From positions 6,508 through 70,507 of the forward strand of contig JASEGR010000003.1 of the NCBI GenBank assembly GCA_030017955.1: a stretch of DNA of 64,000 bases, given 5' to 3'. Position numbers and translations under genes: made by a program. This document shows, piece after piece, positions 23,688 to 59,869 of this stretch (the first letter of the stretch is position 1; the number at the start of each line of letters is the position of its first letter). The DNA comes from Candidatus Eiseniibacteriota bacterium. GTDB taxonomy: Bacteria > Eisenbacteria > RBG-16-71-46 > JASEGR01. The notes under the pieces were generated by a model that saw only the letters and a program-made list of their open reading frames with translations, made no database searches and was not told where the DNA came from.

Positions 23688-24701
23688 TTGAAGCTTATTC
23701 ACGACATATGGAAGAGGGCCAGGGAGAAGCACGCGAGGATTGCTCTTCCTGAGTCGGAGGACGAAAGGACGCTCAGCGCCATCAGCGAAGTCAGAGAGAG
23801 GGACCTCGCTGAAATCGTGCTAGTTGGCGACGGGAAGAAAATTGCAGGAAGAGTGGCTCAGGCAGGTATCGACCCAGCGTCTATTGAGATTATCGATCTT
23901 TCTTCGGAAGAATCGTACGAGAAATACCTGAAGCTAATGTTGGACCACGGCGCCCGTGGGAGAATTTGGGAGAAAGAAGTTCCCGAGCTCGCAAGGAATC
24001 CTCTTTTTGTTTCTGCACTCCTCTTGGACACGTTCCAAGTGGACGGCGTCGTGGCAGGGGTGAATACAAAATCATCAGATGTCATTCGTGCAGGTTTGAA
24101 ACTTATTGGTACTAAAGAACCTAACGGCCTAGTTTCAAGTTTCATGTTAATGATCTTGCCTGAGGGAGGACAAAACCCGGAGAGGGTGCTCCTGTTTTCG
24201 GATTGTGCCGTTGTTCCCGAGCCGACTCCGGAGGGACTTGCAACCATAGCCTTCTCATCTGCCCTGAGTTTCAGAGCAGTAGTTGGTGAAGAGCCCAGGG
24301 TTGCAATGCTTTCTTTTTCGACAAAGGGCAGCGCGTCTCATCCGCGAACGGATAAGGTGAGGGAAGCAACAGCCATCGCAAGGGACCGTCATCCGGACCT
24401 CGCCATAGACGGCGAGTTTCAGGCAGATGCTGCGCTCGTCCCGTCTGTGTGCAGGACGAAGGCCCCCGGCAGTGTTCTGAAGGGCGATGCCAACGTCTTG
24501 GTCTTCCCTGATCTTGACAGTGGAAACATAGCTTATAAGCTTGTGGAAAGACTTGCAGGTGCAAGGGCCTATGGCCCAATACTTCAAGGTCTCAAGAGGC
24601 CTCTGAATGACCTTTCACGCGGTGCAGATTCCGACGCAATAGTCAACGTGATAGCAATAACTGCTCTTCAGAAGGAGATAGTCAGAAGTGCCGACCTATG
24701 A
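23688..24701 (+). CDS. pta: Phosphate acetyl/butyryl-transferase (Pta family)
   Basis: 337 aa. The N-terminus [14 protein letters not shown] and the C-terminal ...[25 protein letters not shown] are Pta/PTA_PTB family-type segments. Confidence 0.7.
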
Positions 24702-24951
24702 GTACGAATGCCCCCGGTGCGGGCGCATGTTTGAATTGTTTACGTCCATGCTTGATGAGAAGGAAAAGCGATGTCCAAAATGCAGGGGAATCGGGAAGAA
24801 GCTTCCTGGGTCGGGAGCGGGGTTTATATTCAAGGGCAGCGGATTCTACTCGACAGACTATAGAAGCGAGAAATATCACAAGGAGAAAGAAAAGGAAAAG
24901 GGACCGTTGAAGGAGACGAAATCAGAAAAGAAAAAGAAATTAGACAAGTAG
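24688..24951 (+). CDS. FmdB-family zinc-ribbon protein
   Basis: GTG start. [12 protein letters not shown]...RCPKCRG carries the CxxC-N19-CxxC FmdB motif. The C-terminus is a KEKEK low-complexity tail. Confidence 0.75.
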
Positions 24952-26333
24952 AGAATAGCCTGAGGTCGGCCCTTGAGCCGTCAGCCGTTCTTTCGTCTCG
25001 GGAGGAAAGGATCTGCTATTCGTTTGATGCAACGACACTGTCCCGCCTGCCCGACCTCGTAGCACTTCCTTCCACAACTGAAGATGTACAGGCAATTCTG
25101 AGGATTTGCCGGAAGTACAGAGTCCCAGTCACTCCCAGAGGGGCCGGAACCGGCATGAGCGGAGGTTCCGTGCCAATCGAGGGCGGCGTTGTGGTCTCGA
25201 TGGAAAGGATGAACAGCATTCTCTCGCTTTGTCCAGAGGAAAACAAGGTGACCGTCGGACCTGGACTGATAAACGGAGAACTGCAAAAAGTGCTGATGGA
25301 GCGGGGACATTTCTTCCCGCCAGACCCGTCGAGCATGGATTTCTCAAGCATCGGGGGAAATGTTGCACTCAACGCAAGCGGCCCGAGGTGCTTCAAGTAC
25401 GGCGCGACCAAACGCTACGTCGAGGCCTTCGAGTTCGTCACGATCGAGGGTGACGTCCTGGAGGTCGATGCGCGAAATCCCTTACCGGGATTGGGAGATA
25501 TGCTGTCGATTCTTGTGGGGAGCGAGGGCACGCTGGGAGTCCTTACCCGGCTTGATCTCAGGACGGTGCGCCTCCCCGAGATGACAACGTGTTTTCTGGC
25601 AAATTTCAAGGACTTCTCGCATGCAGGAGGAACGGTATCGGTGTTTCTTTCTCAGAAAGTGATCCCATCGGTCATCGAAATAATCGACGGGAATACCGTA
25701 AGATGCGTGGAGGAGTTCGCAAGGACAGGTCTGGCATCCGGCGATGGGACTTTGATGCTGGTTGAGGTTGACGGCCCGGAAGATGAGGTCAGAAGTGGAA
25801 GTTCTGCAGTCGAAGAGATTCTCCGGTCTTCGGCCACGTATGTCAGGAGGGCAGAGGAAAAGGGAGAGAGGGATAAGTTGTGGAAACTCAGGAAGTCGAT
25901 TTCTCCCTCACTTGCGAGGATCGGCCCGACCAAAATAAACGAGGATGTGTGTGTGCCGAGAACGAAAATTCCGGAGCTCGCCAGCGCAGTCGATAAAATG
26001 ATAAAGAAGTATGGATTGAAGATCTTTCTTTTCGGTCACGCCGGAGACGGGAACATTCACGTTAATATAATGACTGACAGGAGAAACCTTGATGAAATGA
26101 AGCGTGTAGAAGAGGCAGTGCGGGTTTTGTTTGACACCACGCTGTCCCTTGGAGGGACTCTCTCCGGGGAACATGGCATAGGTCTTACGAAGAAGGAATT
26201 TCTCAAGGACGAGGTTGGGGAATATGGTATGATGGCCTTCAGGAAAGTGAAAGACGCATTCGACCCGGCGGGAATGCTCAATCCAGGAAAGCTCCTTGAC
26301 TCAACCCGATTTGACAGGGGTTGCCACGTCTGA
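24921..26333 (+). CDS. FAD-binding oxidase (GlcD / D-lactate dehydrogenase family); start codon non-canonical (ATC 24921, ATT 24939 or CTG 24960); first ATG only at 25155
   Basis: The FAD-binding PCMH domain (PDLVALPSTTEDVQAILRICRKYRVPVTPRGAGTGMSGG) is encoded upstream of the ORF-track ATG at 25155. The frame is open from 24864 and contains no ATG/GTG/TTG before 25155. AAGGAG lies 5 nt before the ATC at 24921. Confidence 0.6.
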   Translation: MRKEKEIRQVENSLRSALEPSAVLSSREERICYSFDATTLSRLPDLVALPSTTEDVQAILRICRKYRVPVTPRGAGTGMSGGSVPIEGGVVVSMERMNSILSLCPEENKVTVGPGLINGELQKVLMERGHFFPPDPSSMDFSSIGGNVALNASGPRCFKYGATKRYVEAFEFVTIEGDVLEVDARNPLPGLGDMLSILVGSEGTLGVLTRLDLRTVRLPEMTTCFLANFKDFSHAGGTVSVFLSQKVIPSVIEIIDGNTVRCVEEFARTGLASGDGTLMLVEVDGPEDEVRSGSSAVEEILRSSATYVRRAEEKGERDKLWKLRKSISPSLARIGPTKINEDVCVPRTKIPELASAVDKMIKKYGLKIFLFGHAGDGNIHVNIMTDRRNLDEMKRVEEAVRVLFDTTLSLGGTLSGEHGIGLTKKEFLKDEVGEYGMMAFRKVKDAFDPAGMLNPGKLLDSTRFDRGCHV

Positions 26334-31324: not shown

Positions 31325-31738
31325 ATGAAGAGAGGCAGAATACTTGTGGTGGACGACGAGGAGGACGTTCTAACAACACTGAGGCACGTTTTTGAGCTGA
31401 ACGGGTTCGATGTGCTGCTTGCAAGAAACGGAGCAGAGACTCTCGACATTGCCAGAAGGGAATCGCCGGATCTGATAGTCCTCGATGTGATGCTTCCGGG
31501 TCAAAATGGTTATGAGATCTCGAGGATTCTCAAGGAGGAGATTGAAAAAGGCAGTATCCGCCGCGACATGAAAATCGTCATCCTCACCGCCAGGAAACTG
31601 GATTCCAGCGAAAGGGAAGAGTTCATATCCACCTGGGCAAAGGCCGACGGGTACCTCTACAAGCCGTTCAAGATGGAGGAACTCATCGAGACTGTTGAAA
31701 CGCTTCTGGGCGTGAAGCCGGCCCACGCGAGAACTTAA
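31325..31738 (+). CDS. Stand-alone response regulator receiver protein (CheY-like)
   Basis: RILVVDDEEDVLTTL...DLIVLDVMLPGQNGYE...YLYKPF contains the conserved Asp pocket and the K(P)F motif. It has no output domain. Confidence 0.8.
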   Translation: MKRGRILVVDDEEDVLTTLRHVFELNGFDVLLARNGAETLDIARRESPDLIVLDVMLPGQNGYEISRILKEEIEKGSIRRDMKIVILTARKLDSSEREEFISTWAKADGYLYKPFKMEELIETVETLLGVKPAHART

Positions 31739-33465
31739 GGAGCCCGGGAGTATTGAAGAGGGTCAATATCAGGAAAGAGGTTGTCTCTTTCTTCGACGGA
31801 TGACAGGAAAGTGATTTCTTCCACGGAGAGCCTCTCCCCGTGTTTCAGTTTCTCCAGAAGTCTTATTAGACTTGTGAAGTCTTCGTAGTGCCTCTCAACT
31901 CTTCCTTCGGCGTAGTCTCTTGCACTCCAGGTCGAGATAAGAAACTGCCAGTCGGATGATTCCAGGAGAAGAAGTTCTCTTATTGCCTGTTTGAGAACCC
32001 TGTAGAACTCGCTTCGATCCGCCTGCCTGGCTTCCGCCGAGATTGAATTCATCGATAGTTCCGCCTCATGTATAAGCTTCCATGTCCATTCTGTCCAACT
32101 GTTCAGCCAGACATAATGAAACCCGCCTTCGCCCCACGATCCTTCCGGGAGAGAGACAACGGTCCGGGGAGGAAATTTCTCCAGATACCTGCGAGGGCTG
32201 AGCGCCTCGATCATGTCATCCTCATCGATTATTCTCAGCACAGTCTCAAACCACTGAACTCCTTCGAACCACCAATGGCCAAGAAGTTCGGTGTCATAGG
32301 GAGCACAGAGCATTCCTGGCGTTCCGAATCTCTTGTGGTGTCCGATCAGAGCTTCTTTCACAAGCGAAACGAAGTGCATAGCATTCTCAGGGATTCTTCC
32401 GAATGCATTCTCCGGCACGTAGGTTTCCTTTCTCGCAAGGTCACTCTTTGAGGCAGTCACCCTCCAGTACCGGATTCCTCCCGGAAAATGCTTCTTGTGA
32501 AACTCAAGATAGTTGCCGTCTCCCGGGTAGCCGCGCTCGCCGCTCCACACCTGCACTGCCGTTCTGGGGTCCCTGGTGAAAAACGAGATTGGCTCTCTCA
32601 GGTGAGGTTCAGATGGTGAAGAAACAAGGTAGGGGACAAGATGTGACCTCTCCTGAACAGGCTTCTCAACCATCTCCAGAATAGATCTTTCCCACATCTC
32701 CTTGAGCGCCTTGAACCTGTCAAGATAGACTCCAATCGCCTTCCCGCCTTTCAACATGTGGGAATCAACGAAGAAAAACTTGATGTGAGCCTCGCCCAGA
32801 AATTCTTCTACACCTCTTCTCTCAAAGGAAAGTTTGTCCGAAACCGGGGACGTCCAGTGGTAGCGGGGCCTGTAGGCACACTCTGGCAGCCAGATGCCTT
32901 TCGGTTCCTCACCGAAGTGTCTCATGTAGGAACTCTTTCCGACGAGGATCTGCGCCTTGACTGCCTCATCCGTGCCGAGAAGAGGGAGATAGCCGTGAGT
33001 CGCCGCCGAAGTAAGAATTTCGACGCTTCCCTCATCGCGGAGTCTGCGGAAACCTCCGATTATGTCTCCCGAATAACGTTCCCTGAAGCTCCTAAGGACA
33101 TTTTCGTAGAACCGCTCCCAAAAAGCCGTGAGCGCGTTGAACTCTGTCTTCCCCGAACCAGAAAAGTCCTTCCTGTCATTTCTCACTGCCTCCAGTCTGT
33201 TTTCGAGATATGCCGTGAACTCCTCTTTGAAGGCCTGACTTGAGAGCTGCTCGCAAAGGACTGGTGTCAAGCCGACTGCGCAGGAGGGATTCCCGCCCCT
33301 CTCGAGAATCGAGGTCAAGACATTGAGAAGAGGAATGTAAGATTCGGCGGATGCCTCATTCAGCCAGTCAGTGCCGTGAGGCCACCTGCCGTGCGACATA
33401 ACATACGGAATGTGTGAATGGAGGACGAAAGAGAAGTAGCCGAGAGGGTTCTTAGTTTTCAGAAT
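31735..33465 (-). CDS. Glycoside hydrolase family 57 1,4-alpha-glucan branching enzyme; non-canonical start (ATT 33465..33463 or CTG 33462..33460), first ATG at 33399
   Basis: The minus-strand frame is open from the TAA at 33515..33513. The GH57 N-terminal signature KNPLGYFSFVLHSHIPYV is encoded upstream of the first ATG (MSHGRWPHGTDWLNEASAESYIPLL...). There is no ATG/GTG/TTG in that stretch, and a GAAGGA Shine-Dalgarno lies 6 nt before the ATT. Confidence 0.75.
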   Translation of the reverse strand: MLKTKNPLGYFSFVLHSHIPYVMSHGRWPHGTDWLNEASAESYIPLLNVLTSILERGGNPSCAVGLTPVLCEQLSSQAFKEEFTAYLENRLEAVRNDRKDFSGSGKTEFNALTAFWERFYENVLRSFRERYSGDIIGGFRRLRDEGSVEILTSAATHGYLPLLGTDEAVKAQILVGKSSYMRHFGEEPKGIWLPECAYRPRYHWTSPVSDKLSFERRGVEEFLGEAHIKFFFVDSHMLKGGKAIGVYLDRFKALKEMWERSILEMVEKPVQERSHLVPYLVSSPSEPHLREPISFFTRDPRTAVQVWSGERGYPGDGNYLEFHKKHFPGGIRYWRVTASKSDLARKETYVPENAFGRIPENAMHFVSLVKEALIGHHKRFGTPGMLCAPYDTELLGHWWFEGVQWFETVLRIIDEDDMIEALSPRRYLEKFPPRTVVSLPEGSWGEGGFHYVWLNSWTEWTWKLIHEAELSMNSISAEARQADRSEFYRVLKQAIRELLLLESSDWQFLISTWSARDYAEGRVERHYEDFTSLIRLLEKLKHGERLSVEEITFLSSVEERDNLFPDIDPLQYSRAP

Positions 33466-33761
33466 CCGATGTCCTTCTTCGAGGGTTCGCCTGGGAAAAT
33501 CTTTATCGGCCCGTACTGTTCCTCAAACTTCTTTATGTTCGTGTCCAGGGCATTGAGAAGGGATTTCGCATGCTGGGGGGTCATCACGATTCTGGCGTAA
33601 ACCCTGCTCTTCGGAACGCCGGGCATGAATCTCGCAAAATCGATTATGAATTCGGAAGGCGAGTGCGCTATGAAGGCAATGTTGGAATAGATGCCTTCGG
33701 CCTCTTTCTCGCCAAGCTCCACGCTTATCTGCGGCTGCGGAATCGGCTGCTGTTTCTCCAT
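33459..33761 (-). CDS. DUF3467-family small protein
   Basis: 100 aa. The motif GIYSNIAFIAHSPSEFIIDFARF matches the DUF3467 G-x-Y-x-N...H...EF..DF signature. Its stop overlaps the putative ATT/CTG start of the downstream GH57 gene (ATTCTGA). Confidence 0.55.
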   Translation of the reverse strand: MEKQQPIPQPQISVELGEKEAEGIYSNIAFIAHSPSEFIIDFARFMPGVPKSRVYARIVMTPQHAKSLLNALDTNIKKFEEQYGPIKIFPGEPSKKDIGF

Positions 33762-34088
33762 CTTGCGCGACCTCCGTCTGAAGAAAGCCAGTTTGAGATC
33801 CCCGTCTCTGTTTACGTCGAATGGGTTCTGACAGGATCAAGAACCGGTGCTCCGATCTCAGAGATTCTTGACCGGGCTCCATGGAATCGTTGAACTTGAA
33901 AGAGATTATGGTGAATGAAGTACCATGTCAAGGAGAAACGGGGCATGCTCCGAATTCGGGGACACATCTCTAAGCCTGTTTGGGGAATCAGACCCTGGCT
34001 CAGGCGTTGAATCCTCTCAAGCTAGCTCCTGGCTTAGCCGATTTAATCCTAGGAAGGTGGTCAGTCGCTGGTCCTAGCAGCATTACAG

Positions 34089-37213: not shown

Positions 37214-38572
37214 GTGACTGCTGATCCGATTGTGAGCGTCTCCGGCGTAAGAGGCATTGTCGGGGAATCCCTGACGTCCGACTTTGCGCTCAGGCTTGGT
37301 TCAGCCTTTGGGACGACTCGCGGTGCCGGAAGGATAGTAGTCGGCAGAGATACCAGACCGTCCGGCAGAACACTCGTCCGGGCAGTCCTCGCCGGACTAT
37401 CATCCGTCGGATGTCACTGCATCGATACGGGAATTGTGCCCACACCAACCGTTCTCTGTATGGTCGGAGAAGCCGAAGCGAAGGGCGGCATCATCATTAC
37501 TGCCAGCCATAACGGGCCTGAGTGGAATGGCCTGAAATTTGTCTCCGGTGATGGAAGTTTCCTGGATGAGAAGGGAATGAAGGAAGTCGTGTCTCTTGCC
37601 GAGGGCCGCGACGGGTTTGCGTGGAAGGGATACAAGTCGCTTGGAGAATCCTGGCCGAATGCGTGGGCTCCATACCGGCACGTAAGAAGAATCACCGAAT
37701 CCAAGGCCATCGATGTCTGGGGTCTGAGAAAAAGGAACTTCTCAGTGGTTGCCGACTGCGTAAATGGAGCCGCATCTACCGTGCTTCCCGTTTTGCTGAG
37801 CGAGCTCGGCTGCAAGGTAAACCTGATCTTTGATTCCCTGAGCGGGGAGTTTCCTCGCGGCCCGGAACCGGTGGCTGAGAACATCGGTATGCTTGGTGAC
37901 GAGGTGAAGAAAAGAGGGGCGGATATTGGCTTTGCTTTTGACCCTGACGGGGATAGAATCAGTATCGTAGCGAGCAGTGGAAGACCTTTTGGAGAAGAGA
38001 ACTCCATTGTGCTTGCCTCCAGACTCATTCTCACGAAACTGGGAGGCACGCTCGTTGTGAACGCTTCCACGACATCTGCTGTCGATGAGATCGCCAGCCG
38101 GGCCGGCTGCAAAGTGGTGAGATCAAAAGTCGGTGAAAGAAACGTGGTCGAGCTCATGAGGAAGCACGGTGCAATTTTAGGCGGAGAGGGGAATGGCGGT
38201 GTGATTCTTCCACAGGTAAACTGGGGCAGGGATGGAATTGCCGCCTCGGCCCTTTTTCTTCAGGCTTTGCTTGAGTGGGGAGGCGACTCCGATACTCTCC
38301 TCGATTCCCTTCCAAAGTACTTCATGGTGAAGGAGAAGATTACCTGCGAAAAGCCGCTCAAAGAAGTTGAGGCAGTCCTGCTTGGTGCCTTTGCTCCCAC
38401 AAGCATAGATAGGACCGATGGGATAAAACTCTTTTTTGAGGATGGCTGGCTTCACGTTAGAAAATCCGGGACTGAGCCGGTTGTCAGGATCATGGGAGAG
38501 GCCAGGGTAAAAGGAAAAGCAGAGGCAATGGTCGGGGAAGCCATTTCCAGTCTTGGAAAGACCGGGGCGTGA
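37214..38572 (+). CDS. glmM: Phosphoglucosamine mutase / phosphohexomutase family (GlmM-like)
   Basis: GTG start. The N-terminus is VSVSGVRGIVGESLT, the active-site Ser loop is TASHNGPEWNGLK, and the metal-binding loop is DPDGDR. It lies adjacent to glmS. Confidence 0.75.
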   Translation: MTADPIVSVSGVRGIVGESLTSDFALRLGSAFGTTRGAGRIVVGRDTRPSGRTLVRAVLAGLSSVGCHCIDTGIVPTPTVLCMVGEAEAKGGIIITASHNGPEWNGLKFVSGDGSFLDEKGMKEVVSLAEGRDGFAWKGYKSLGESWPNAWAPYRHVRRITESKAIDVWGLRKRNFSVVADCVNGAASTVLPVLLSELGCKVNLIFDSLSGEFPRGPEPVAENIGMLGDEVKKRGADIGFAFDPDGDRISIVASSGRPFGEENSIVLASRLILTKLGGTLVVNASTTSAVDEIASRAGCKVVRSKVGERNVVELMRKHGAILGGEGNGGVILPQVNWGRDGIAASALFLQALLEWGGDSDTLLDSLPKYFMVKEKITCEKPLKEVEAVLLGAFAPTSIDRTDGIKLFFEDGWLHVRKSGTEPVVRIMGEARVKGKAEAMVGEAISSLGKTGA

Positions 38573-41050: not shown

Positions 41051-41414
41051 GTTGAGGCCCTGCGACCTCCTATTCCATGGGCTAGTGCACCGTAACATAA
41101 GTAAGTTGACATTCACATTGCCGCTGAACGGTGCACTGCTGGGGGTTTTAGGGGGTCGAGCCCGACCCCCTAAGGGGTTACAGTTGCGAAAGTTGCCGGT
41201 GGCAAGTTTCGAAACGTCATAGGGGCGATAGCCCCTGTGAAAGTGCTGGGTCACCCCATAATAAGTCCGTGAGTTTATGTGACACAGCACTAGGAGGCCC
41301 GAGCAGCAGGCAATCTCCAGAGTGAGCTACCCGGAAGCCCAGCTCCAGGAAGAATCAGGAGGCTGGGCTCAATCAGAAAAGGAGTAGGAGTAGACTTCAC
41401 CTCAATAAGAGGAG

Positions 41415-42470
41415 ATGGCGGTGACCAAAGAGGAACTGAGCCGGCTGACGCAGGAAGTCTCCTGCGCAGGCTGAGCGGCAAAACTGGGTCCGGCGGACCT
41501 TTCGAAAGTCCTTAAGACAGTCCCAAAGCAGAAGGACAAGCGGCTCCTGGTCGGGCTTCACACTTTGGATGATGCCGGCGTCTACAAAATCGGGAAAGAC
41601 CTGGCTATTGTCCAAACAGTCGATTTCTTTCCGCCGGTCGTGGACGATCCGTATGACTTTGGGATGATAGCTGCGGCGAACGCCCTCAGTGATGTGTACG
41701 CCATGGGAGGAACTCCGCTCACTGCAATGAGCATAGTCTGCTTTCCGAGCGAAAGAAAGAATATCGGAGTCCTCGCAAGAATTCTGAAGGGCGGGACCGA
41801 CAAACTCAGGGAAGCAGGCACAGTGCTCGTAGGCGGTCATTCTGTGAAGGACAATGAGCTCAAATTCGGTTTTTCCGTCACAGGGACAGTCAATCCGAGG
41901 AAAATCGTGTCCAATGCCGGAGCCAAGCCGGGAGACGCTTTGATACTCACAAAGCCTCTCGGCACCGGTGTTCTCACAACTGCGCTCAAAATGGGAATCT
42001 TGTCGGAAAATGGCAGAAGAACGGTGACCCGTGTCATGTCGTCGCTCAATTCCACTGCTTCGAGATTGATGTGTAAGTTCGGCGCTGATTCCTGTACGGA
42101 CATCACGGGTTTCGGTCTCGGAGGCCATGCCTGGGAGATGGCACGGGCAAGCAAAGTGACTCTTAGATTCTATTCGGCAAAAATCCCGGTTCTTCCAGGA
42201 GTCCGCGAGCTTGTTGAGAAAAAGTCCGTTCCCGGCGGGACAATATCCAACAAGGAATTTCTTAAAAGAGACGTATTGATCCACAGCTCTGCGGCGGGGC
42301 TATCCCCTCTGATATTCTTTGACCCGCAAACCTCCGGCGGCCTCCTGATCAGCATCAGTCAGAAGCGGACAGAAGCTCTATTGAAAGAACTTCGAAAGAG
42401 CGGGATAAGGGACGCGGCGCTTGTCGGGGAAGTGGTGAGAAGAAAGAAGGCGCTGGTTGAGGTTTTCTAG
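41415..42470 (+). CDS. selD: Selenide, water dikinase (selenophosphate synthetase) SelD - selenoprotein with in-frame TGA (Sec) at 41472-41474
   Basis: The ATG at 41415 gives MAVTKEELSRLTQEVSCAG-U-AAKLGPADLSKVLKTV...LDDAGVYKIG, which aligns with E. coli SelD [24 protein letters not shown]...RDDAAVYDLG. The TGA falls exactly at catalytic Cys17 and the conserved Lys follows 3 residues later. The hairpin GGUCC-GGC-GGACC starts 12 nt after the UGA, which is SECIS-like. The ORF-track version (TTG 41565) lacks the essential N-terminal motif. Confidence 0.8.
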
Positions 42471-42654
42471 CAGCGAGTGCGTGGAAGGGGGTTCCGGAAT
42501 AGAGGTTTTCTCAGTGTCTTCTGCGATTGGCCGGGAGCGAATGGGCTCTGGTGGGCCCCGAGGACTTCAAATCCTTAAGTCGGGCGCCAATACCGTCCGG
42601 GGTGGGTTCGATTCCCACGCGTTCCCGCCATCTCGTTCGTGGTCACAGCAAGGC

Positions 42655-43161
42655 TTGCGTGTGGCGCTTCTGGCTGCTCTCCTGCTTTGCGTCTTGGCGC
42701 AAGGATCTCCTGCTGCCGTCTCGACCGTGGACACCTCGAAGGCGGGATTTTTCGGTACTCCATTTTTTGTGATGATGAGGTCCGGCGTTATTCCTGGATG
42801 GGGACAGGTTCACAACCATAAGTACTTGAAGGGAGCGGGCGTGTTCCTTCTCGAAGGCGCACTGGCTTTCAAAATCTATGATGAGAACAGAAAGGTGAAT
42901 GACTATTGGACGAAGCATGTTGGCGCCGCCACCTACCCCGAGCAAGTACGTTACTTTGACCTCTACGCCTTTCATTACGACAGGCGAAGCAATTACATCT
43001 GGTGGCTTGCTGGTACCACAGTATTGAGCCTCGTTGATGCGTACGTTGACGCACATCTGAGAGGTTTTGACGAAGAGGTAGCGAGGGAAACTGCCGTTGA
43101 CCTTGCGGTCATACGCCGCAGCGGGGAGGCCGTAGCAGTAGTGGTGAGAAAGACATTCTAG
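42655..43161 (+). CDS. Secreted/membrane hypothetical protein with PGWGQ motif (DUF5683-like)
   Basis: A TTG start at 42655 (or GTG at 42661) gives the signal peptide [22 protein letters not shown]. The motif [16 protein letters not shown] resembles the DUF5683 P-G-x-G-Q signature. The ORF-track start at 42457 overlaps the selD 3' end and is probably too early. Confidence 0.4.
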
Positions 43162-47535: not shown

Positions 47536-47795
47536 TGTTTGTTCTCCTCGCGTATTGGACTAAACTCTTAGGCGTTTGATCTTTTCCACCCAATTCCGTT
47601 CCAACGAATAGCGGCAAGGATACCATTCCCAAGTTAGAGGATATTAAGAGACACGGCAAGTGGAAATACGGGGCAGTGCATCTTATTCATCGAGCGTGTG
47701 CCGGGCGAAAAGATACCTATCTCCCCAAGCCGTGGGAAACTCCCCTTTACCTGTGCTTGCTTGAAGGAGGCGCGTAGAAGTGATATTCTTAAGTA

Positions 47796-49358
47796 TTGGT
47801 ACCTTATCGGACCGCCCGTGGATGGGCCCGGGCATCAGACTTGGAACCTCCGAACTTGCCAAAGGCCACTCAAATACTAGCGTTTTCTGCCATCCTGGTG
47901 CTTGCTGCTGTCCCGGCTTACCTTTTCTCGGCTCCTATTCATACGACATACCTCTGGCATATGCATCAGCCAATCTACTGGCCTGACAAAAGCACGTGGA
48001 ATCCGTGGAGATATGAGACTGCTTTCGAAACCGTAACTCTGGGACATTCACAGAGTGATGTTTTCTCCATATTCAACTGGGTGGTGGTCCCCGATATTCA
48101 CATTGCAAGGGCGTGCAAAGACTATCCGTTCGCCGGCCAGGAGGACAACTGCGATCCGCCAAACCAAGCCGACAAGATAAATCCGCCTCAAGGCACCTAC
48201 ACGAAAACGAGCATTTCGAGAGGAGTGGCCGTAAAGGTGCCGCCCGGATACGCAGAAAGACCGCACTACGCAAAGTACATCGACCCCGGAACCGGGACGG
48301 AATACAAGATCCTGGTCATCCCTTCGGCGATGGCACCGAGTTGGAATGAAGGATACGGCATGTACGGAACGAGTGAGATTGACTCGATGGCCCGGTTCAA
48401 TGATCCGGCGCACCCAATTCTTGTTCTGTTCAGCCACGATGGAGACAACGCCTGGTCAGGCGGATACTCTTATTACTACGAGAATGTATCAAGCTTCAGC
48501 CATCAGGCGGTCTCAAGAGGCTACGAGCCGACAACGGTGGAAGAGTACCTTCAGGATCATCCTGTTGATCTGAACGACATCGTTCATGTCGAAGCGGAAG
48601 ATAGCCAGGGCAATGTAAAGAGAACTCCGATTCAGCACGTCTGGATCGGGACCGGGGCCGGTGGAGATGAGGCTTGCTTCTGGGAACCGGAAACTCCTTC
48701 TTTAGGCGACACTCTCTCCATCTTCTACAGCGCGGTTTATGGCACGCTTCCTGACACAGCAAGCAGAGTCTTCATCCGCATCGGACATAGCGGGTGGAAA
48801 GACATTCTCACGCCTGACCCAGCAATGGTTTTTGATGCCGAAAGAGATTACTGGAAGTACCGCTATGCAATTCCGTCTCAGGCAACCTCCGTCGATTTCG
48901 TTTTCAACGATGGGAGAGGGAATTGGGACAATAACAGTGGTGATGATTGGACAGTACCCGTATCGGGAACCATTCAATTTGTGATGGACGGCGTGCTCGA
49001 TTCGTCTGCTGTGAAGATCGCAAGTTCAAGCGGAATCGATCTGCGGGCTTGTGTGAGCGGTACGGTTCTTTACTTCGCCACTCAGGGGGTCCTATCTACA
49101 AACGGTGTGGATCACTTCGTTTTCGTTTCGACTTCGCCGGGAAGCTTGAAATCGGCACCCTGGGCAAAGTCCGGGAGTGTGGCTTCCTGGAACTACTTCC
49201 TCGGCGGTGAAGATTCAAACAACTGGTGCGGCTGGTTTGACGGGGCAGGAACGTTAGTGAATTCATCTTCTCTTGGGAAGGCGCAAGGAGCTGCGCTTGA
49301 GGGAACGATAGACCTGGAGGCTCTATTCAGGACTATGCCAAGAAGGTCCTCTACCTGA
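47796..49358 (+). CDS. Secreted carbohydrate-active protein: N-terminal GH57-like domain (HxHQPxY motif) and C-terminal CBM25/26-like starch-binding module
   Basis: Signal/anchor ILAFSAILVLAAVPAYLFSA. YLWHMHQPIYWPD is the GH57 conserved-region-I-like motif. The C-terminal FVFNDGRGNWDNNSGDDWTVPV resembles the CBM25/26 (NWDNNxGxNY) motif. Confidence 0.45.
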   Translation: MVPYRTARGWARASDLEPPNLPKATQILAFSAILVLAAVPAYLFSAPIHTTYLWHMHQPIYWPDKSTWNPWRYETAFETVTLGHSQSDVFSIFNWVVVPDIHIARACKDYPFAGQEDNCDPPNQADKINPPQGTYTKTSISRGVAVKVPPGYAERPHYAKYIDPGTGTEYKILVIPSAMAPSWNEGYGMYGTSEIDSMARFNDPAHPILVLFSHDGDNAWSGGYSYYYENVSSFSHQAVSRGYEPTTVEEYLQDHPVDLNDIVHVEAEDSQGNVKRTPIQHVWIGTGAGGDEACFWEPETPSLGDTLSIFYSAVYGTLPDTASRVFIRIGHSGWKDILTPDPAMVFDAERDYWKYRYAIPSQATSVDFVFNDGRGNWDNNSGDDWTVPVSGTIQFVMDGVLDSSAVKIASSSGIDLRACVSGTVLYFATQGVLSTNGVDHFVFVSTSPGSLKSAPWAKSGSVASWNYFLGGEDSNNWCGWFDGAGTLVNSSSLGKAQGAALEGTIDLEALFRTMPRRSST

Positions 49359-49391
49359 AATAGAATAACGAGCTCCGCTGCCCCTCATCAA

Positions 49392-49427
49392 CCTCTCCCC
49401 CTCGGGGAGAGGATCAAGGTGAGGGGA
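49392..49427 (+). repeat. 36-nt palindromic REP-like element, copy 2
   Basis: CCTCTCCCCCTCGGGGAGAGGATCAAGGTGAGGGGA, flanked by an outer inverted repeat CCCCTCA...TGAGGGG. It sits in a ~410-nt gene-free region. Confidence 0.6.
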
Positions 49428-49770
49428 ACTTGCCCTGCGACGCTCCCTTTTCGGGGAGACAGGAACCCAGGAATCTCATTATGTTCGCTCCAACGCCATC
49501 TTACCTTACAGTTGTACACAATGTCTTATTTCTTCACATTAGCCGCTAATTCTGACAGAATACCTGCTCGGCCCAGCACCCGAGACGTTCCGGGCCATGA
49601 AGGAACTGAGTCCCAGTAATCCAAGCATCGTGTATAATGGCGGGTGGTCAAATAGGTTGTGCTGTTCACCGCGCGGATCAAGCTGACTATCATGCGTCTC
49701 CACAACGGCTAGATCTCAGCTGCAGCCTATCCGCGGCAACCCCAGTGACAATAGGAAGCCTACCACCGAA

Positions 49771-59285: not shown

Positions 59286-59449
59286 GCGTGTTTGAGTGCA
59301 AGAAAGTCCTTGACTGTAGGGCGGCTGTCTTGTAGAATGGCAGTGTTGGTTCCGGAGAATGTGTTCGAAAGTGCCAAAACAGAATAATGACAAAGTCTAA
59401 AGGGGCTAAGGTTGCCCCTAATTTTTTGTGAAAGGAGGTTGGGAAGAAG

Positions 59450-59653
59450 ATGCCAGAAAAAGGCCGTGTTAAGTGGTTCAATGAGACCAAGGGATTTGGT
59501 TTCATTGAGCGCACAAATGGCCCGGACGTGTTCGTGCACTATTCTGCAATCGCTGGAGAAGGATTCAGAAGCCTCGAAGAAGGTCAAGAAGTGCAGTTTG
59601 ACGTCACGGAGACCCCAAAAGGGTTGCAGGCAACAAACGTAGTCAAAATATAG
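59450..59653 (+). CDS. cspA: Cold-shock protein (CspA family)
   Basis: [30 protein letters not shown] contains the RNP1/RNP2 motifs. 67 aa with a strong RBS. Confidence 0.95.
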
Positions 59654-59678
59654 ATGTAAATCATCTTATTTGACTGAA

Positions 59679-59714
59679 GGGCTCCGGCCTCCAGGCTGGA
59701 GCCCTAGTTTTTTT
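59679..59714 (+). terminator. Rho-independent terminator after cspA
   Basis: An 11-bp GC-rich stem (GGGCTCCGGCC / GGCTGGAGCCC, one G.U) with loop TCCA is followed by TTTTTTT at 59708-59714. Confidence 0.75.
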
Positions 59715-59869
59715 GTCCGACGGTCCTCGAGCTGGCATCGGTTCCCCGGCCGCGAAAACCGGATTGACACTGTCCCGCAGAGTTGCTACCGTGCGCTTAC
59801 TTCTGAGTGGCAGTCGGCATGTCAACGTCCGAACCAGAAGGCGCAATTCCCCTAACGCGAGGTGGAGAA

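Follow-up and report, generated by a model that had tools for sequence, protein, structure and literature searches.

The window analysed here is a stretch of 64,000 nucleotides (64 kb; contig JASEGR010000003.1 of assembly GCA_030017955.1, positions 6,508 to 70,507) from the metagenome-assembled genome (MAG) of a Candidatus Eisenbacteria bacterium, and the gene in question is selD, for selenide, water dikinase (SelD), whose reading frame is interrupted by a single UGA codon. The genes glmM, glmS and Rid lie upstream of selD, and an open reading frame (ORF) of the DUF5683 family, lepA, lepB and hemW lie downstream; the gene for the selenocysteine (Sec) tRNA, selC, directly follows selD (Table 1). 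Between ATG 41415 and the terminal TAG, the TGA is the sole in-frame stop, and there is no frameshift. A first-pass annotation of this stretch, made from the letters alone, had described this interruption at coordinates that hold, and the read-through translation that it quoted (MAVTKEELSRLTQEVSCAG, the TGA codon, then AAKLGPADLSKVLKTV...) is reproduced exactly. The mechanical ORF caller begins the gene at TTG 41565, as that annotation had also observed, and thereby gives a product of 301 aa (41565-42470) from which the catalytic loop is missing.

Table 1. Features of the selD-selC locus (coordinates of the 64-kb window).
Feature	Position	Strand	Remarks
Structured RNA core (candidate)	41071-41300	+	about 230 nt; homologue at L074 622-860 (-)
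Shine-Dalgarno sequence GAGGAG	41409-41414	+	6 nt 5' of GTG 41421; read from sequence
Alternative selD start, ATG	41415-41417	+	351 aa, Sec20
selD coding sequence (selenide, water dikinase), more likely start	41421-42470	+	GTG start, TAG 42468-42470; 349 aa; Sec18, Lys21
UGA, very probably read as Sec	41472-41474	+	opposite Cys17 of E. coli and the Cys in the crystal construct of A. aeolicus SelD
AAA codon, conserved Lys (E. coli Lys20 equivalent)	41481-41483	+	ungapped alignment to 3u0o and 2yye
Candidate bacterial SECIS (Sec insertion sequence) core	41486-41500	+	6-bp stem GGGUCC/GGACCU; apical loop GGC 41492-41494; UGA-to-loop 17 nt
selC, tRNA-Sec, anticodon UCA, encoded CCA	42533-42630	+	ARAGORN; Rfam RF01852; 62 nt past the selD stop

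The selD product and the conservation of its UGA

When the TGA is translated as Cys, the read-through product scores 381.9 bits against TIGR00476 (cutoff 125), which is the outcome of a profile alignment proposed in the first-pass annotation, and 326.7 bits against NF002098 (cutoff 299). The profile match begins at residue 10, upstream of the TGA, and the domains PF00586 (AIRS; residues 52-159) and PF02769 (AIRS_C; residues 171-345) follow in the order of SelD. The best matches among solved structures are the SelD proteins of A. aeolicus (2yye, E = 1.3e-76) and E. coli (3u0o, E = 3.6e-68). In the N-terminal alignment to 3u0o, which is free of gaps, Cys17 stands opposite the TGA codon and Lys20 opposite the Lys that comes after it, as had been claimed beforehand, and in the alignments to both structures the product has the Gly-rich N-terminal loop of the SelD family, with the Sec/Cys position and a Lys three residues on. 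In E. coli SelD, the selenide-binding Cys17 belongs to a glycine-rich loop (residues 14-21), and the C17S protein is catalytically inactive (PMC3956282). Because the Cys17/Sec position sits in this loop, upstream of TTG 41565, a gene model starting at that TTG would lose the catalytic loop. Judging from the sequence, the gene is one for a full-length selenophosphate synthetase, with the predicted activity of making selenophosphate from selenide and ATP.

The resemblance to E. coli SelD extends over residues 4-347 versus 3-345, with an offset of one residue (Cys17 corresponds to Sec18 here, and Lys20 to Lys21). The two genes differ in that E. coli has a Cys codon (TGC) at this position, in the motif GAGCGCK as against CAGUAAK here, and because of this Cys codon the E. 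coli selD needs no SECIS. For A. aeolicus SelD (PDB 2yye/2zod), the 2yye chain reads SSGCAAKVGPGDL, whereas CAG-U-AAKLGPADL is found here. With the Sec-type SelD proteins of other bacteria, the product shares the TIGR00476 family, the order of AIRS and AIRS_C, and the loop G-[U/C]-x-x-K. Such Sec-type proteins occur, for example, in Haemophilus influenzae and in many Deltaproteobacteria and Clostridia; the case described here differs from them in its host, an uncultivated Candidatus Eisenbacteria lineage.

The first-pass annotation had the gene begin at ATG 41415. A start at GTG 41421 seems more likely from the comparison of sequences, because one close relative (L002) has ACG in place of this ATG yet keeps both the GTG and the GAGGAG that precedes it.

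Loci homologous to selD were fetched by SelD similarity, 12 from genomes and 80 from metagenomes, and 89 of them could be placed at the UGA codon. The equivalent codon is TGA in 71 of the 89, and TGC or TGT (Cys) in the remaining 18. An upstream RLT motif is in frame in all 89 placeable loci, the Lys after the Sec/Cys position occurs in every one of the 89 homologues listed, and the 17 codons 5' of the TGA are kept in frame in L001, L002 and the 89 homologues. In the close relatives L001 and L002, the TGA, the downstream hairpin and the upstream frame are all kept, and the differences upstream are synonymous. By these counts, the position of the TGA is beyond chance. TGA is at the same time the commonest ordinary stop in the window (TGA in 19 of the 30 genes, TAG in 10 and TAA in one), so the genetic code is not reassigned.

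The candidate SECIS hairpin and the tRNA-Sec gene

A hairpin composed of GGTCC (41487-41491), GGC and GGACC (41495-41499) starts 12 nt past the TGA, and a further pair, G41486-U41500, extends its stem to 6 bp. This stem-loop, already pointed out in the first-pass annotation, was confirmed by the sequence and by folding of the region after the UGA, in which it forms part of the minimum free energy (MFE) structure, with pair probabilities of 0.85-0.998 in a 106-nt context. In the published model of bacterial SECIS elements (bSECIS), a loop of 3-9 nt with a G in its first two positions stands on a stem of 4-16 bp, the distance from UGA to loop is 16-37 nt, and the MFE is at most -7.5 kcal/mol (PMC13188914). 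The hairpin of the window agrees with this model, having a 3-nt loop that starts with GG, a stem of 6 bp and a spacing of 17 nt. The MFE of the UGA plus 56 nt is -12.6 kcal/mol, and that of the bare hairpin, -7.4 to -7.9 kcal/mol, is borderline with respect to the limit of -7.5.

Like the SECIS of E. coli fdhF and the Zhang-Gladyshev bSECIS consensus (PMC13188914), the candidate is a stem-loop that lies inside the coding region shortly after the Sec UGA, G (here GG) opens its small apical loop, its 17 nt fall within the range of 16-37, and the folded region lies below -7.5 kcal/mol. It differs from the fdhF type in being much shorter, with a perfect 6-bp stem, a loop of 3 nt and no U bulge. 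The overlapping hairpin GGAC-CUUUCGAAA-GUCC, which had been offered as an alternative, finds no support: 53.8% of its cells are paired, the same as in shuffled or slid controls, and its pair probability in the window is 0.001. The SECIS element of fdhF is about 40 nt long.

Several results weigh against a SECIS at this site and against Sec insertion in general. Within the window, the hairpin alone is not above chance, either in comparison with dinucleotide shuffles (MFE z = +0.61) or with synonymous recodings (z = +0.17), and the peptide L-G-P-x-D-L almost dictates it. RNAalifold, applied to all 72 Sec-type sequences, gave no consensus pairs, because about a quarter of the Sec-type genes use another hairpin register, and around selD Rfam gives no match to a SECIS family (only to tRNA-Sec). 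Moreover, neither selA nor selB is present among the ORFs of 120 aa or more that the 64-kb window contains, where the sole match to the selB model is the GTPase domain of LepA (78 bits, cutoff 242).

Because the statistics of the hairpin in the window alone were not significant, comparative tests were used instead. In an ungapped alignment (A2) of 72 distinct Sec-type genes, the helix columns 14-19/25-30 are paired in 77.1% of cells, as against 21-56% with slid partners. Thirteen cells at three pairs show compensatory changes (G-C to A-U, G-C to C-G and U-A to G-C), a number that was matched by 0 of 500 shuffles; examples are the replacement of GGUC/GACC by AGUC/GACU in Dehalococcoidia and by GCUC/GAGC in an Ardenticatenia MAG. 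Of 49 Sec-type genes, 39 use GGU for the Gly of the 5' arm, and no Gly codon is used less in the present genome than GGT (13%). Perfect hairpins compliant with the bSECIS model were also enumerated in Sec-type genes, in Cys-type genes and in codon-permuted controls; their mean energy is -7.66 kcal/mol in the Sec-type genes, as against -3.06 in the Cys-type genes (Mann-Whitney p = 7e-7) and -2.12 in the permuted controls (p = 2e-36). The hairpin thus far described lies over the codons of L-G-P-x-D-L in the Sec-type homologues as well, although in some subfamilies a hairpin is found 27-37 nt downstream instead, and the Cys-type selD genes are without a hairpin at the register of the window. It is this comparative evidence that makes the hairpin convincing as a putative SECIS.

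The first-pass annotation stated that none of selA, selB and selC was visible in the window. This stands for selA and selB, within the size limit given above, and does not stand for selC, which was found by ARAGORN and matches the full model (1-91) of RF01852 with 68.3 bits (gathering score 47). Its D arm, GGGCUC-UGGU-GGGCCC, has a 6-bp stem and a 4-nt loop, the variable arm is long, the acceptor strand has 8 nt with A-G as the innermost pair, and the T stem has 5 bp. In L001 and L002, selC is identical but for one base, whereas the spacer and the downstream DNA diverge. Besides L001 and L002, no fewer than nine further loci (L005, L006, L023, L024, L028, L035, L040, L049 and L062) have the tRNA-Sec gene beside a Sec-type selD; the present locus differs in that selA and selB are outside the cluster and the neighbours are housekeeping genes. 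Because no terminator-like site was found between selD and selC, their co-transcription is plausible.

A mechanical ORF of 234 aa (42457-43161, +) takes in the tRNA-Sec gene, and its homology to DUF5683 is confined to residues 105-205. Because of this overlap and this confined homology, the DUF5683 gene must start downstream of 42630.

Decoding of the UGA and its occurrence in the lineage

Very probably, selD encodes a full-length SelD in which Sec is placed in the catalytic loop through UGA 41472, with the hairpin at 41486-41500 acting as the SECIS. The proposal of the first-pass annotation that selD is a selenoprotein gene is thus borne out by the family scores, the alignments to structures, the conservation of the TGA, the bSECIS criteria and the adjacent tRNA-Sec. 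Direct support exists for the identity of the gene, for the UGA, both in its position and in its conservation, for a bSECIS-type hairpin with comparative support, and for a linked selC; binding by SelB and the actual insertion of Sec are what we infer from the known pathway (PMC13188914, PMC9312934). In that pathway, the UGA would be recoded during translation, the short hairpin located 14-29 nt past it, rich in G+C and with GGC as its loop, would serve as the bacterial SECIS, and SelB bound to this hairpin would bring Sec-tRNA(Sec), its tRNA supplied by the selC gene, to the UGA. The product, carrying Sec18 and Lys21 in its glycine-rich loop, would convert selenide and ATP to selenophosphate, which SelA would in turn use to form Sec-tRNA(Sec) (PMC13188914, PMC9312934). 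Since selenophosphate is needed to charge tRNA(Sec), selD would depend on its own product, and the locus would add to the known cases of this self-dependence, with selenophosphate needed for the synthesis of SelD.

The TGA might instead be a genuine stop, the product then being the protein of 301 aa from TTG 41565, or the gene a decaying pseudogene. The mechanical ORF caller does give this form, P0001, a close database relative, was called alike, and the window offers no sight of selA or selB; but the 301-aa form would lack the Gly-rich loop with Sec/Cys and Lys, a loop in which a single exchange, C17S, inactivates the E. coli enzyme (PMC3956282). A stop is also difficult to reconcile with 17 upstream codons kept in frame in L001, L002 and the 89 homologues, with a TGA at this very codon in 71 independent loci, with an adjacent and conserved tRNA-Sec, and with a gene that has neither a frameshift nor a further stop, and we regard it as highly improbable. 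Equally improbable, in our estimation, is that the UGA is read through without Sec, for example by a near-cognate Trp or Cys tRNA aided by the hairpin. A stem-loop-aided read-through of this sort has been proposed for the UGA at this position in hymenopteran SPS1 (PMC4561486), whereas here and in many Sec-type loci a tRNA-Sec gene is linked to selD. In addition, the UGA falls on the catalytic Cys/Sec site, and the hairpin agrees with the bSECIS model of the SelB type down to the G that opens its loop.

Since the window derives from a MAG, a type of assembly that may contain errors, the TGA could in principle stand for TGC or TGT; a genome-wide reassignment of TGA (code 4 or 25) would be another way to remove the stop. 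Both are effectively refuted: the identical TGA occurs in two independent assemblies (ENA ERZ27247591 and JGI 3300063152), and TGA is the stop of 19 of the 30 genes of the window, in which no other credible TGA-interrupted gene exists. The last point comes from a scan of the window with TGA taken as a sense codon, which returned selD only. The first-pass annotation had raised the possibility that other selenoprotein genes here were mis-called; the scan of the window gave no such case. The best candidates after selD, at 31735-33969 (-) and 47793-49619 (+), have ordinary stops.

We return to the selenoprotein reading of selD and its occurrence among bacteria. SelD has been described as frequently being a selenoprotein (PMC4561486), and it is among the two bacterial selenoprotein families with the widest distribution (PMC1794560, PMC13188914, PMC4561486), ranking second. 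For this reason the novelty of the finding is low: it is a well-known arrangement in a poorly sampled lineage, and it answers no open question. What it shows, as we infer from the Sec-type selD together with selC, is that UGA is read as Sec in a deep-branching lineage of Candidatus Eisenbacteria. Sec decoding has not been reported for the Eisenbacteria phylum in the literature searched, in which no paper joins Eisenbacteria and selenocysteine. With this probable decoding in view, further selenoprotein genes should be considered in the genome before ORFs are called split or truncated.

In a collection of 5.8 billion proteins, only two close relatives of this SelD were found, P0001 (92% identity) and P0002 (80%), on contigs from separate samples (ENA ERZ27247591 and JGI 3300063152). 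Beyond these two metagenome fragments, the identity is at most about 58%, and a scan of genome contigs for SelD relatives gave 50% as the best value; because of this value, the lineage appears to be absent from the GTDB representatives that were reached. Another Eisenbacteria SelD (P0085, 52% identity) is of the Cys type. The LepA and Rid proteins of the window match those of an NCBI MAG of a Candidatus Eisenbacteria bacterium at 100% identity (LepA MDI6807530.1). For LepA, the next relatives are only 66-67% identical, and a Rid-based search for relatives of the region upstream of selD found none besides the source MAG.

The value of the result lies chiefly in annotation, since gene callers cut this selD to 301 aa and thereby lose the catalytic loop. 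P0001, the closest database relative, was called truncated in the same way as the TTG 41565 model, and the protein collection contains neither a 301-aa form nor an X-substituted form of the present selD. Many database entries for SelD of 328 or 314 aa start just past the Sec codon (P0002, P0018, P0024, P0039 and P0045; P0017 and P0058), for example at the Leu of LGPxDL, with TTG or CTG read as Met. In short, gene callers systematically shorten Sec-type SelD in public collections, some NCBI MAG records included.

A structured RNA upstream of selD and other features of the window

The spacer between Rid and selD (41051-41414, 364 nt) is the most structured of the 13 intergenic regions of the window that were tested, with an MFE of -157.6 kcal/mol (z = -6.3 and -5.9). 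For its core, a single homologue was found in 1.37 Mb searched (nhmmer E = 4e-7), on the metagenome contig L074, where it lies beside another Sec-type selD but in the opposite orientation to that gene. The two copies share 41 predicted pairs, of which nine have compensatory double changes and none is broken, and their conserved core is CAUAGGGGCG-NNAG-CCCCNGUGNAAGUGCU. Neither copy matches any Rfam family, and the small ORFs of the element have no Pfam match. A covariance model (R1) run over 683 kb of fetched loci returned only the copies of the window and of L074, and a pattern scan of viral contigs and blastn searches of plasmids and phages gave no further member. From the predicted pairing, the core looks like an undescribed RNA of about 230 nt and is a candidate for a new non-coding RNA; its link to selD, seen in two cases only, is likewise a candidate one. 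That it represents an undescribed family tied to Sec-type selD and controlling the use of selenium, perhaps by regulating selD-selC in response to SelB or selenium, is a speculative suggestion that we consider unlikely.

On L074, an ORF of 92 aa (977-1255, +) lies directly 5' of the Sec-type selD, and by eye only it has a likeness to carriers of the MoaD/ThiS type (…VAIVPAIAGGS). After the spacer upstream of selD, the most structured 'intergenic' region in the window is 59286-59806 (z = -4.5). It contains a gene for a cold-shock protein of 67 aa (59350-59708, +; ORF 59450-59653) and has a sub-threshold match to the Rfam cspA thermoregulator (49.6 bits, gathering score 78, E = 1.4e-11).

Elsewhere in the window, a gene for a zinc-ribbon protein of about 86 aa (24691-24951, +; Pfam Zn_ribbon_8, E = 3.6e-11), under the 120 aa of the ORF listing, lies between pta and a gene for a GlcD-like FAD-linked oxidase (24864-26333, +). 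The frame of the oxidase is open from 24864, and the homology (LRSALEPSAVL...) runs from about 24960; the first in-frame ATG, GTG or TTG is at 25155, where the match to Pfam FAD_binding_4 has already reached profile position 37. The oxidase gene therefore seems to be without a canonical start codon, and candidates for its start are a CTG at about 24960 or an ATT at about 24939, in overlap with the stop codon of the small gene before it. The phosphoglucosamine mutase gene upstream of selD (37214-38572, +) belongs to the GlmM type of archaea, with 464 bits against TIGR03990 (cutoff 439) as compared with 222 bits against the bacterial TIGR01455, under the cutoff of 447.55, and it adjoins glmS in this bacterial genome.

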